Assembly (NCBI GenBank): GCA_013403045.1 | Contig: GCA_013403045.1_3037.1 | Length of the DNA: 64,000 nucleotides | From: Escherichia coli O157:H7 | Lineage (GTDB): Bacteria > Pseudomonadota > Gammaproteobacteria > Enterobacterales > Enterobacteriaceae | Direction: 5' to 3' (one strand) | Shown here: positions 2,340 to 57,820 of the stretch, piece after piece | Layout of the letters: the number at the start of each line of letters is the position of its first letter | How positions within the stretch are numbered: position 1 is the first letter of the stretch | Program-made: the position numbers and the translations under genes | Notes under the pieces: generated by a model | Databases searched by the model: none | Told to the model about the DNA's origin: nothing | What the model saw: only the letters and a program-made list of their open reading frames with translations

Positions 2340-4397
2340 ATGGAACTTATTACAGAATTATTTGACGGCGCTTCGGCGCCGGTTGTTAACTTAAATCCTA
2401 AGCATAAAATACCACAAATTTTTGCTATCCAAGCCGGCGAAGAAAGCGTGCTTCCTGGATTTAGATTTTGTACATACACCTCTGGTGGTGATACAAATAA
2501 AAATGTTAAGCCAGGCGATAAAATGATGCATATCGTAATGATAGGTGTCAACGAGAAATTATCGCTGGTTAAGCTTAGAAACTTGGGTGGAAATCCAATT
2601 GGCGTCATTAATGCCGTTTTTGATACTGCTCTTCAAACAATGAAACAGTATAAAATTGACGCATGCCTATTCCGCGTACTAAAAAGTAAAACAAATGGCG
2701 CTGCTCGTCAAATGCAAGTTATTGCTGACCGTTTAGTACGTACTAAAGGAGCAGGTCGATATGTTCTTTTAAAGGAAATCTGGGATTATGATAAAAAGTA
2801 TGCATATATTATGGTTTACCGTAAAAATGCCAATTTAGAAGACATTCCAGGTGTACCTCCTATTTCAACTGAGTTATTCACAAAAGTTGAATCAAAGGTT
2901 GGTGATGTTTATGTAGACGTTAAAACAGGTAATGCTGTTCCTAAAGCTGTCGCTGTTGCTGCTTCTATTGCTTTAGAAAATGATAAGCGCACGGACCAAG
3001 CTGTTATTCAGAAAACTAAAATTAGTCGTCGATTAGCAGCACAAGCTCAATATTCTACTGTTGATGCTTCACTTCAGGGTGATAGCTTCGCTGCTAAGAA
3101 ATATCAAGAGTTTGAATCTAAAGTTCCGGTATATAAAGCAGAAGGACCAATGAACTCTGGCGTTATTCAGATTGGTTCAAACTTCAGCAAAGGAGCTATC
3201 GGTGGTATGAGGAGTGCTTCTCGTTTTAAATCTAGCGATTATGAACTAGAAAGTTTCCGAAATCATATTGCATTAGCCCATGCGCGTTTACGCGATCCAT
3301 CTATCAAGTTGCAGAGCGATACATCATATCAAGGTTCCCAGGAATATTTAAAGAATAAAGACTTCTTTAATTACAAAACTGATAAAATTTTAAGCGATCT
3401 TGCTGATATTAATATTTCTAATAGTTTTGATGTTATTAAGAAAATTATCAATGATTTAGTTAAAGGTTCTAAAGCTACACCAGATGAAAAGACAGCTATT
3501 ATTCAATTTGTAATGAATGGAATTTATAAATTAATTGATGAATCCGCTGCTCAGGCGTATGAATATGCAAGCACTGAAGTAACTCCAAAAGGATTGACTC
3601 AGGCTGAGTCTGATGTAATTGAAGATTATTGCGCAGATTCGTATGTTGAAATGAACTCATTCCTTTTAGGTAAACCTGATTCTACACGTGAAGAATATAT
3701 GGAACGAGCTATTAAACATATTGAGACGCTGGATTCTGCATTCGCTAAAGGTTCAGTTCTTCCTCCAGGAACTACACTTTACCGTGGACAAGAAGTTACT
3801 TTTAAAACTTTGCGTCATAACATTGAAAATAAAATGTTCTATTTCAAGAACTTCGTATCGACATCACTTAAACCAAATATCTTTGGTGAGTATGGTAAAA
3901 ATTATATGGCCTTAGATAATTCCGGAGCAGTATTTTCTGGTGAAGGAGAAGGTTCCGTTGATGCAGAAGATTTGATGCATATGGGTAGTCATTCTACATA
4001 TGCTAATGAAGATGCTGAAACTAGCGTGGGTATGGTAATTAAAGGAGCTGAACGAGTTAAAGTTATCGTTCCAGGTCATTTATCAGGATTTCCATCAGAA
4101 GCTGAAGTTATTCTACCACGTGGAATTTTACTGAAGATTAATAAAGTAAGTACTTACTTTATGAAAGAAACTGCTTATAACAAGTATCTAATCGAAGGTA
4201 CAATCGTTCCTCCTTCTGAACAATTAGAAGAATCAGTATATGATGGCGACCATCTAATGGAAACTGGTGAAGTTCGTCCAATGGCTGGATTTAATCAATT
4301 CCTTGTAGAAGAATCAAAAGAAGAGGAAAACGAAGTTTCTCAAATCTTAGCTTCTTTGGTTAACATCAACGGAATGTCTAAAAAGTTCAAAATGTAG
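2340..4397 (+). CDS. Alt-like ADP-ribosyltransferase paralog, copy 2
   Basis: 685-aa ORF 3 nt downstream of copy 1; same N-terminus (MELITELFDG), same R-S-E motifs (TLYRGQ, FVSTSLKP, SEAEV), divergent central region. Confidence 0.85.
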   Translation: MELITELFDGASAPVVNLNPKHKIPQIFAIQAGEESVLPGFRFCTYTSGGDTNKNVKPGDKMMHIVMIGVNEKLSLVKLRNLGGNPIGVINAVFDTALQTMKQYKIDACLFRVLKSKTNGAARQMQVIADRLVRTKGAGRYVLLKEIWDYDKKYAYIMVYRKNANLEDIPGVPPISTELFTKVESKVGDVYVDVKTGNAVPKAVAVAASIALENDKRTDQAVIQKTKISRRLAAQAQYSTVDASLQGDSFAAKKYQEFESKVPVYKAEGPMNSGVIQIGSNFSKGAIGGMRSASRFKSSDYELESFRNHIALAHARLRDPSIKLQSDTSYQGSQEYLKNKDFFNYKTDKILSDLADINISNSFDVIKKIINDLVKGSKATPDEKTAIIQFVMNGIYKLIDESAAQAYEYASTEVTPKGLTQAESDVIEDYCADSYVEMNSFLLGKPDSTREEYMERAIKHIETLDSAFAKGSVLPPGTTLYRGQEVTFKTLRHNIENKMFYFKNFVSTSLKPNIFGEYGKNYMALDNSGAVFSGEGEGSVDAEDLMHMGSHSTYANEDAETSVGMVIKGAERVKVIVPGHLSGFPSEAEVILPRGILLKINKVSTYFMKETAYNKYLIEGTIVPPSEQLEESVYDGDHLMETGEVRPMAGFNQFLVEESKEEENEVSQILASLVNINGMSKKFKM

Positions 4398-28673: not shown

Positions 28674-31814
<3,141 letters not shown>

Positions 31815-55736: not shown

Positions 55737-56210
55737 ATGAAAACATATCAAGAATTTATTACTGAAGCAGCTATTAATTCTCAAATTATTGCTGAATCTT
55801 TTACTGATCTTTTGAAATTTAAAAAAGGTCAAAAAATCACTGCTGTATTGGATGATGGTACAGAAGTTGAGATGGATGTACAGGGATATAATTATGCAGT
55901 AGATGGAAAACTGTATAATAAATCTCATGCTAAATTTGATTCATTTGACGACTTTGTTAATACAGTTGAAGATGAAAAAACTCGTAGATCCATTGCAACT
56001 GGCGACGCTAAGGTTCTTATGGCACATGGCCATGAACGCATCCGCGCTAAACAGAATAAAATGGGCGAAGATAATTTTGCATTAGTTGGTTATCAATCTG
56101 GTAAACAAACTTATGGCTATCAGCGTACTGCTACCATGTATAACAAAAATGGTAAAATTGCCTTTGTGAATAGTAAAGGTTCTATTCAGTACGTTAAATC
56201 GTTCAAATAA
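55737..56210 (+). CDS. internal protein (Ip) family member with capsid-targeting sequence
   Basis: 157 aa; N-terminus MKTYQEFITEAAINSQIIAES with I-T-E and I-A-E gp21 cleavage motifs; adjacent to e as ipIII/ipII are in T4. Confidence 0.7.
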   Translation: MKTYQEFITEAAINSQIIAESFTDLLKFKKGQKITAVLDDGTEVEMDVQGYNYAVDGKLYNKSHAKFDSFDDFVNTVEDEKTRRSIATGDAKVLMAHGHERIRAKQNKMGEDNFALVGYQSGKQTYGYQRTATMYNKNGKIAFVNSKGSIQYVKSFK

Positions 56211-56315
56211 GCAAATAAGAAATATGGGAACAAGCTGGACCTCATGATTCTGTGAGGGATTCCCGCCAACCTGTAATAAGGTCGAGCCCAAGTGCGGTAA
56301 TGGGTAAATACAGAA

Positions 56316-56903
56316 ATGGACAATTCATGCGCCATGGAATGGCCCAAATTTAGAGAGAATAAAATGAGAACATTTTTAACTGGTCCTTATCTATCCCTGA
56401 TGAATGCTTTTACACACCATTCTGATGCTAGAGTAGAAGAAATTTGTAAAAACGATTATATCCCACCATTTGAAGAATTACTTAAACAGTATTGCACACT
56501 TCGACTAGATGGTGGACGTCAATCCGGTAAATCAATTGCTGTGACTAACTTTGCTGCTAATTGGTTGTATGATGGCGGAACAGTTATCGTTCTTTCTAAT
56601 ACTTCAGCTTACGCTAAAATTTCTGCAAATAACATTAAAAAGGAATTTTCGCGTTATTCTAATGATGATATACGTTTTCGTTTATTTACTGATTCTGTGC
56701 GCAGTTTTATTGGTAATAAAGGAAGCAAGTTCAGAGGTTTATCGCTTTCGCGAATTTTGTATATAATTGATGAGCCTGTCAAATCTCCTGATATGGATAA
56801 GATTTATAGTGTCCATATTGAGACTGTACACTACTGCTGTAATAGTAAATGTTGTATTGGTGGTATTACTCGTCCACAGTTTTTCGTAATCGGAATGCAA
56901 TGA
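56316..56903 (+). CDS. P-loop NTPase, function unknown
   Basis: 195-aa ORF; Walker A GGRQSGKS and Walker B-like LYIIDEP; C-terminal Cys cluster; start codon uncertain (56316, 56334 or 56364). Confidence 0.55.
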   Translation: MDNSCAMEWPKFRENKMRTFLTGPYLSLMNAFTHHSDARVEEICKNDYIPPFEELLKQYCTLRLDGGRQSGKSIAVTNFAANWLYDGGTVIVLSNTSAYAKISANNIKKEFSRYSNDDIRFRLFTDSVRSFIGNKGSKFRGLSLSRILYIIDEPVKSPDMDKIYSVHIETVHYCCNSKCCIGGITRPQFFVIGMQ

Positions 56904-57229
56904 TGACAGACACTCAGCTTTTCGAATATCTTTATTTTTCGCCAAAAACTATTAAAAATAAATTGGTGAATCATTTTGAAATTTTGGCAAATAACAACGT
57001 CTTGAGCGAATTTTATCCTAAGCAATACAAATTACAAAAAGGCGTATTCAAAGGATGCAGAGTTTTGTGTACTGCTCCTAATGCACGGCTAATGAATAAA
57101 ATTCCATATTTTACCATGGAATTTATTGATGGTCCTTTTAAAGGACTAATCACACAGAGTTTAATGGCATATGATTCTGAGCCATTTTTAATTAAAGAAC
57201 AATCTTGGATAAATTTATTTTCTAATTGA
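56900..57229 (+). CDS. hypothetical protein translationally coupled to the P-loop NTPase
   Basis: 109 aa from ATGATGA overlap with the upstream stop. Confidence 0.5.
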
Positions 57230-57236
57230 GGTTTAT

Positions 57237-57599
57237 ATGAAAGCATATCAAATTCTTGAAGGCACACATAAAGGTACTATTTATTTTGAAGATGGTATTC
57301 AAGCACGAATTATTGTCTCTAAAACCTTTAAAGAGGACTCTTTTGTAGACCCAGAAATTTTCTATGGTTTGCATGCCCGTGAAATTGAAATTGAGCAACA
57401 GCCTACAGTTAAAATTGAAGGTGGTCAACACCTGAACGTTAACGTTCTGCGTCGCGAAACTCTGGAAGATGCAGTTAAGCATCCGGAAAAATATCCGCAG
57501 CTGACCATCCGTGTATCCGGTTATGCAGTTCGCTTTAACTCTCTGACTCCGGAACAGCAGCGCGACGTTATCGCTCGTACCTTTACTGAGAGTTTGTAA
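57237..57599 (+). CDS. autonomous glycyl-radical cofactor (GrcA/YfiD-like)
   Basis: 120 aa; C-terminus [59 protein letters not shown] carries the glycyl-radical motif RVSGYAV; 3' half is GC-rich with host-like codons. Confidence 0.8.
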
Positions 57600-57820
57600 T
57601 GGCAAAGATAATTATTGAAGGTTCTAAAGATGTGCTAAATGCTTTCGCCGAGTGGTTTAGTAATTCAGGCGAACAGCAATTTAATGAAGCCTGGAATATG
57701 GGTGATATTGATGGAATTTATCCTACGACAGAAATTTCTGTTCAAGGATATGGCATTCATGAACCTATTCGTTTAGTTGAATATGATTTATGTACTGGTG
57801 AGGAAGTCAAATATGATTGA
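57599..57820 (+). CDS. hypothetical protein
   Basis: 73-aa ORF, TAATG overlap with the previous gene. Confidence 0.5.
   Translation: MAKIIIEGSKDVLNAFAEWFSNSGEQQFNEAWNMGDIDGIYPTTEISVQGYGIHEPIRLVEYDLCTGEEVKYD

Follow-up and report, generated by a model that had tools for sequence, protein, structure and literature searches.

The two overlapping ORFs at nt 56316–57229 of the window (the whole 64,000 nt stretch of DNA that was analysed) are the Escherichia phage AR1 copies of the known T4 genes vs.8 and vs.7, and do not represent a new kind of system. The vs.8 product is a stand-alone protein paralogous to the N-terminal ATPase core of gp17, the large terminase. Upstream of the pair lies a structured leader RNA of 125 nt (nt 56222–56346, plus strand).

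A 2.1 kb query around the pair was 100% identical to phage AR1 (Tequatrovirus), and hundreds of T4-like phages matched it at 85–99%. In the AR1 annotation the two ORFs are named vs.8 and vs.7, with Ip4 upstream and vs.6, encoding a GrcA-like protein, downstream. The original prediction had described a 195 aa ORF (56316–56903, plus strand) carrying the motifs GGRQSGKS, LYIIDEP and HYCCNSKCC, followed by a 109 aa ORF (56900–57229, plus strand) that begins within ATGATGA. All of these features were found in place, the ATG of the second ORF overlapping the TGA stop of the first by 4 nt (ATGA, 56900–56903, plus strand, read from the sequence). It had also held that neither protein matches a T4 product, which proved wrong: T4 vs.8 (NP_049732) shares 97% protein identity with the first ORF over 179 aa, counted from M17, and T4 vs.7 (NP_049731) shares 98% with the second. 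In T4 the genes lie at 64253–64912 (vs.8) and 63927–64256 (vs.7), with an identical 4 nt overlap. Homology to a characterised T4 product, the finding named in advance as refuting the original prediction, is thus borne out as far as homology goes and not as to characterisation, because the T4 genes are named but functionally uncharacterised. The family profiles agree with the assignment, as phrog_1488 (the T4 vs.8 family) matches residues 19–195 (E 4.2e-79) and phrog_2049 (the T4 vs.7 family) the 109 aa protein (E 2.8e-54), both as full-length members. Neither protein was assigned to a significant family by Pfam, NCBIfam or PADLOC; the Pfam copy searched did not contain the PF26834 model, so vs.7 scored null there, and in precomputed Pfam data PF26834 is carried by all database relatives of vs.7.

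The upstream neighbour is the internal virion protein gene Ip4 (55737–56210, plus strand), a member of the denV/ip cassette identified by DUF7412 (E 6e-96), phrog_3155 and the AR1 annotation. The downstream neighbour is vs.6 (57237–57599, plus strand), a GrcA-like glycyl-radical protein gene (Pfam Gly_radical, E 2.5e-18; AR1 and T4 annotation). The placement of the pair between an ip gene and a GrcA-like gene was therefore correct, as was the reported absence of a denV-like sequence (tblastn of T4 DenV against the whole 64 kb window, best E about 9). The proposal that the pair occupies a variable slot in place of denV failed, since T4 has denV directly beside the pair (e-ipIII-ipII-denV-vs.8-vs.7-vs.6) and phage NBEco003 has the order e-denV-Ip4-vs.8-vs.7, compared with e-Ip4-vs.8-vs.7 in AR1. 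AR1 and T4 thus differ in the gene upstream of vs.8 (Ip4 and denV, respectively) and in their annotated starts, but share the order vs.8-vs.7-vs.6 (GrcA) and the ATGA overlap. In RB69, CLB_P2, myPSH1140, EcS1, Roth67, Merlin and PM2 the vs.8-vs.7 pair is kept while the flanking genes change, and in these seven, as in AR1, T4 and NBEco003, vs.8 is located upstream of vs.7/vs.6 in the e-regB region. Comparison of gene orders indicates that vs.8-vs.7 is a conserved unit and that what changes is the denV/ip cassette lying between it and e. The early-region genes around vs.8 are all on one strand. ARAGORN found zero tRNA genes in window positions 1–64000; in T4 the tRNA cluster, with rnaC/rnaD, is just beyond e.8 (NC_000866, 70.9–72.5 kb), a region that the AR1 window should span.

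A tblastn search detected vs.8 in about 1010 phage records and vs.7 in about 930; these all belong to T4-like phages of enterobacteria, and the two genes co-occur in about 930 of the 1010. The stop/start overlap is conserved across divergent relatives, being 4 nt (ATGA) in seven genera, represented by T4, RB69, CLB_P2, myPSH1140, EcS1, Roth67 and Merlin, and 1 nt in PM2. Gelderlandvirus carries vs.8 without the vs.7 core (Salmonella phage Melville, L059:2025–2255; also L063), and in Melville the gene immediately after vs.8 is a homologue of the small one that comes after vs.6 in AR1 (57599–57820 in the window). Consequently, vs.7 is a frequent partner of vs.8 and not an obligatory subunit.

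Residues 1–16 of the 195 aa ORF differ or are missing in T4 and NBEco003, and conservation starts exactly at M17. Because these residues are unconserved and overlap the conserved non-coding RNA, the true start of vs.8 is probably at 56364 and not 56316, giving a product of 179 aa (56364–56903, plus strand). The annotated starts of AR1 vs.8 (56316) and of T4 vs.8 (219 aa; NC_000866, 64793–64912) both enter the RNA, and the AR1 annotation gives vs.7 a length of 126 aa with its start at 56849, inside vs.8. Both the 219 aa T4 vs.8 and the 126 aa AR1 vs.7 are probably over-extended. Other public records call vs.8 or vs.7 'endoribonuclease' or 'terminase large subunit'. An N-terminal extension of vs.8, or a conserved leader peptide (MCQGMA…), was considered and rejected, as the open frame varies by genus and a 1 nt deletion in Karamvirus shifts it. 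The ribosome-binding region of vs.8, AGAGAGAAUAAAAUG (56347–56366), resembles the RegB/S1 target consensus GGAGAAUAAAA (PMC1702504), without the GGAG.

An alignment of 19 vs.8 family members, down to 40% identity, shows DGGRQSGK, I-I-D/E-E-P, R113, R124 (179 aa numbering) and a C-terminal G-x-Q to be invariant or nearly so. The Walker A motif GGRQSGKS (56511–56534, plus strand) is invariant, and the Walker B motif with its catalytic glutamate, LYIIDEP (56757–56777, plus strand), is invariant or nearly so; an invariant 'FRG' arginine is found 13 residues upstream of the Walker B glutamate. None of the residues that handle nucleotide has been lost: the Walker A lysine (K56) with the terminase-type R-Q, the Walker B D-E (catalytic glutamate E137), the arginine shortly before Walker B and the C-terminal G-x-Q are all retained. 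A full-length gp17 gene is present in the window (28677–30509, minus strand), and hhalign of vs.8 against this protein aligned the Walker A motifs (SRQLGKT with GRQSGKS), the 'RG' motif and the Walker B motifs (IYIDE with IIDEP). Their conservation across the 19 family members shows that the Walker motifs are not a chance match. The terminase-type Walker A and Walker B are thus both present in vs.8, the Walker A being of the R-Q-x-G-K-[ST] form common to vs.8 and its own gp17. This form is also that of gp17 ATPase subdomain I (PDB 2o0h; Terminase_6N), with which vs.8 shares an ASCE fold, and both proteins have an hhhhDE Walker B with an arginine about 11–13 residues before the catalytic glutamate. 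Profile matches, though weak, consistently point to the large terminase. The large terminase family phrog_2 matches vs.8 with an E of 1.3e-5, and Terminase_6N matched 16 of the 19 family members, all below threshold; AR1 vs.8 itself scored 12.7 bits against a cut-off of 22, and the best family member gave an E of 6.8e-5. A sequence-profile search of the PDB returned a best E of only about 0.07. The homology of vs.8 to terminase was independently reported in 2026, in a study that left its function open (PMC13601566).

Unlike gp17, vs.8 is 179 aa long, is located among early-region genes, and lacks both ATPase subdomain II and the C-terminal RNase-H-like nuclease domain, the chain ending at residue 179, as soon as the last core strand is complete. 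It is not a large terminase, as it has no nuclease, no subdomain II and a sub-threshold score, and neither is it an SF2 helicase, since two tandem RecA-like domains with motifs I–VI were not found. A profile search run exhaustively over 1.84 billion representative proteins recovered only 50 clusters of the vs.8 family, nearly all of them small stand-alone proteins of about 160–185 aa or shorter fragments. It is plausible that vs.8 works like a terminase ATPase core. A role in nucleotide metabolism, one of those suggested originally, found no support because vs.8 has a fold and motifs of helicase/terminase type rather than kinase type; our best guess is that the pair is neither a denV replacement nor a nucleotide-metabolism enzyme. 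The cysteine cluster HYCCNSKCC (56829–56855, plus strand) was considered as a zinc site and rejected. It falls in a low-confidence loop (AF2 pLDDT below 50 for residues 160–167 of the 179 aa protein) and homologues of less than about 60% identity lack it, which means that the vs.8 family as a whole does not share it. The partner protein, vs.7, has two N-terminal helices followed by a putative small SH3-like beta-barrel with two GPFKG-type motifs, and its weak matches include KOW, KIN17 and helicase-associated SH3 domains.

The gap between Ip4 and the conserved start of vs.8 is 153 nt, with a G+C content of 49% in a genome of 36%, and its DNA is far more conserved across genera than the flanking proteins. 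The leader RNA within it is likewise 49% G+C, compared with 36% for the window. Coding does not explain the conservation, since indels in the region are not multiples of three and the open frame through it varies from genus to genus. The RNA, as worked out by inspection and RNAalifold, comprises helices P1, P2, Pa, P3, P4, P5 and P6 and a pseudoknot. P1 (GGGAA/UUCCC in AR1; AAAGG/CCUUU elsewhere) encloses hairpin P2. A three-way junction follows, made up of the closing stem Pa, the invariant hairpin ACCU-GUAAUA-AGGU (P3) and the short hairpin P4, and is succeeded by GGUAA. After the junction come hairpins P5 and P6, with loops containing A(U/A)GGA(C/U) and A-N-GGAA, a pair of GGA loops (at about 56318 and 56335) that we take to resemble CsrA sites. 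The pseudoknot is formed by the strand joining P1 and P2 with the P5 loop, and among its partner strands are CGCCG/CGGUG, CCGA/UCGG, ACAC/GUGU, CCUG/CAGG, CUCGA/UCGAG and CCA/UGG, with CUG/CAG in AR1 (CUG at 56235–56237, CAG at 56310–56312).

The case for an RNA structure rests on covariation between phage sequences; folding of the single sequence was uninformative (z = +0.47). In a MAFFT alignment of the region that was not fitted to the structure, 93% of cells were paired, as against 21–42% when the partners were slid (21–44% in the combined tally), and 0 of 500 shuffles reached the observed covariation. Changes on both sides were seen at 8 of 36 pairs in this alignment; the count rises to 17 of 31 pairs in a second alignment of 31 sequences, which was fitted to the model and so leans towards the structure. 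At the core of the pseudoknot, three base pairs are kept in all of the sequences (19/19), and up to four pair types occur there. These compensatory changes, exceeding those of the controls, point to a structured functional RNA. RNAalifold recovered only P1, P3 and fragments from the raw MAFFT alignment, because in P2 and the pseudoknot the T4-type sequences were aligned out of register, and for this reason a covariance model (R1) was built from non-T4-type phages only. This model nevertheless found the AR1 element at 56222–56346 with 85.4 bits (E 1.3e-22), as a single copy in the window. A further pairing is possible between the P3 loop GUAA (56279–56282) and UUAC/UCAC after the junction (about 56304–56309 in AR1, AAAUAC). 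It is clearer in L015, L029 and L055, and for the P3 loop GUAA/GUGA the pairs A-U, G.U and G-C occur in three Karamvirus sequences, although few sequences are informative. This pairing and P5 (ACAU/AUGU) share nucleotides, and would therefore be alternative structures, as in a switch.

No known RNA family accounted for the element. Rfam 15 gave no match at E up to 10 in this region of the window, and none at E up to 1 in six related loci. ARAGORN found neither a tRNA nor a tmRNA; the hammerhead and twister cores, judged by eye, do not fit, and Rfam finds neither. Mimicry of a host RNA is unsupported: none of 5,426 E. coli genomes gave a match, and the core pattern did not occur in representative genomes covering 185,579 species of bacteria and archaea. 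When read side by side with T4 rnaC/rnaD, no similarity of sequence was seen. The literature searched, leaving aside a bulk catalogue that lists over 10,000 candidate phage RNAs (PMC10690425), held no description of the RNA.

T4 itself carries the RNA (NC_000866, about 64818–64942, minus strand), which precedes vs.8 in every T4-like genus examined, either adjacent to it or with just an ip gene in between. Public phage records almost always leave the stretch without annotation. In Gelderlandvirus and Mosugukvirus, model R1 locates the RNA immediately before vs.8, and there P3 and P6 show compensatory changes. In Karamvirus-type phages and EcS1 two copies stand in tandem before vs.8 (L006:1637–1894, L030:5050–5307, L036:8964–9221 and L007:1679–1933), the second having its own compensatory variants (GCCU/AGGC in P3, GUC/GAC in P4 and ACCA/UGGU in the pseudoknot). 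In three Klebsiella T4-like phages (L018, L023 and L032) an internal-protein gene (MKTYKEFITEA…) is situated between the RNA and vs.8. Internal-protein genes are thus found both before and after the RNA, a possible boundary for cassette exchange. The same arrangement shows that the RNA is not a dedicated operator touching the ribosome-binding site of vs.8.

The core of the RNA, CCA-ACCUGUAAUAAGGUCGAGC…GCGGUAAUGG, which forms the three-way junction, recurs in unrelated phages with a P1-like hairpin before it. Copies outside the T4-like phages were located at L046:58–210, L057:1577–1614 (phage rV5), L037:636–673, L014:5303–5413 and L062:12919–12949, and in L066, L068 and L065. The hosts of the core include rV5-like phages, a possibly FelixO1-like contig of about 84 kb, 46 kb Klebsiella siphophages, a 360 kb jumbo contig, and others. 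These copies share the strand of the tRNA genes and either fall within a tRNA cluster or precede one by a few hundred nt, and no vs.8 or vs.7 homologues were found in the 3–14 kb around eight copies (L014, L020, L033, L042, L037, L046, L048 and L054). The position is comparable to that of T4 rnaC/rnaD (species 1 and 2), small structured RNAs tied to phage tRNA clusters; in T4-like phages, by contrast, the leader RNA stands before vs.8 and not in the tRNA cluster. In the rV5-like contig L046 a group I intron (3115–3418; Rfam Intron_gpI, 81 bits) was seen about 3 kb from the RNA element. The leader RNA is a candidate cis-acting leader, processed small RNA or self-processing element.

Among the literature searched, only one study was found to deal with vs.8 or vs.7 (PMC13601566), and no mutant phenotype for either gene. 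In that study, co-expression of vs.8 with the STAND sensor EcAvs2 was toxic in E. coli, and AF3 placed vs.8 (ipTM 0.84) in the same EcAvs2 pocket as the terminase ATPase domain, with a bridging ATP. It also described two non-terminase activators of Avs2, Ksap1 and Ksap2 (PMC13601566). Like vs.8, these are small phage proteins with a terminase-ATPase-like sheet that trigger Avs2 and are limited to particular phage lineages; vs.8 differs from the Ksaps, as that study describes them, in having retained clear Walker motifs and sequence homology to terminase.

The reading we favour, tentatively, is that this conserved early pair consists of an oligomeric ATPase and its accessory protein and serves as a non-essential anti-defence or host-takeover module at the phage–host interface. 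An early polycistronic mRNA, with the pseudoknotted RNA (56222–56346) as its 5′ part, would serve for translation of both genes, and this RNA probably governs processing, stability or translation of the message. By analogy with terminase ATPases, vs.8 would bind and hydrolyse ATP as an oligomer, the upstream arginine acting in trans. Putative translational coupling would have vs.7 made in step with vs.8, as a putative accessory subunit or adaptor that is dispensable in some lineages. Owing to its likeness to terminase, vs.8 may also be detected by the terminase sensor Avs2. A role in phage–host conflict is our best guess, and depends mainly on the published Avs2 result and on the position of the pair in an accessory early region. 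Weighing against this guess, activation of EcAvs2 harms the phage, and fits an accidental look-alike no less than an anti-defence protein.

The same data suggest that vs.8 might be a terminase decoy, a rather unlikely account in which the early protein occupies or mis-triggers sensors of terminase ATPases (Avs1-3, Upx and similar), which would be titrated, inhibited or fired harmlessly, with vs.7 capping or modulating an exposed surface. It would suit this account that vs.8 mimics the ATPase domain bound by EcAvs2, down to the predicted pocket and bridging ATP (PMC13601566), that its gene lies among same-strand early-region genes, and that its ATP-binding residues are conserved. However, the toxicity of co-expression means that the sensor is activated and not blocked, and a passive decoy would not need an invariant catalytic glutamate and invariant arginines.

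The constant company of the RNA and vs.8 raises another scheme, which we consider unlikely: that vs.8, with its RecA-like core, and vs.7, with its SH3/KOW-like barrel, together bind or remodel the upstream RNA, either in autoregulation of the mRNA or as a ribonucleoprotein loosely resembling phi29 pRNA-gp16. T4 proteins gp32, gp43 and RegA autoregulate their own mRNAs. The linkage of RNA and vs.8 holds in every T4-like genus examined, including Gelderlandvirus and Mosugukvirus, and is more constant than that of vs.8 and vs.7; the weak matches of vs.7 noted above are also compatible with such a scheme. Like phi29 gp16 and pRNA, vs.8 and the RNA combine a nuclease-less terminase-class ATPase and a structured RNA in one genome, and both RNAs have a three-way junction and loop-loop base pairing. 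The likeness is one of analogy only, as no sequence relation was found and the genes belong to the early region and not with the late packaging genes. A wider version, doubtful to the same degree, would make the pseudoknotted RNA, vs.8 and vs.7 a three-part unit, in which the ATPase binds or remodels the RNA as an operator or as a pRNA-like ribonucleoprotein, while RNAs of the same class are free-standing or self-processing in the tRNA clusters of unrelated virulent phages.

The relationship to gp17 could also mean that vs.8 enters mixed assemblies with gp17, or is a competitor for gp16 or the portal, thereby tuning or delaying terminase activity. Paralogy with the gp17 ATPase subdomain and retention of the putative trans-acting arginine would agree with this, but it is decidedly unlikely. 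No genetic link to packaging is at hand, and the early-region location of vs.8 suggests a different timing of expression from the late-made gp17. From the structures of T4 gp17, it is subdomain II and the nuclease domain that mediate motor contacts, and these are the parts missing from vs.8. It is highly improbable that vs.8 is a decaying relic of a terminase duplication, devoid of present function, for although it is truncated relative to gp17 and the literature searched holds no phenotype, it persists in about 1010 phage genomes of many genera, with invariant catalytic motifs, a constant length and a conserved coupled partner.

The probably co-translated vs.7, the invariant catalytic residues and the natural lineages without vs.7 offer three handles on the role of vs.8. 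The start-codon annotations of T4 and AR1 are also corrected. The part deserving follow-up is the upstream RNA and not the ORF pair. It is an apparently undescribed element in T4 and hundreds of its relatives, related to elements in the tRNA clusters of other phage families. If the three-part unit were true, it would mean a new RNA class in T4, the most studied phage; and if the RNA turns out to act as a regulator, as a ribozyme or as a small RNA that binds protein, a model phage would have gained a new functional element.
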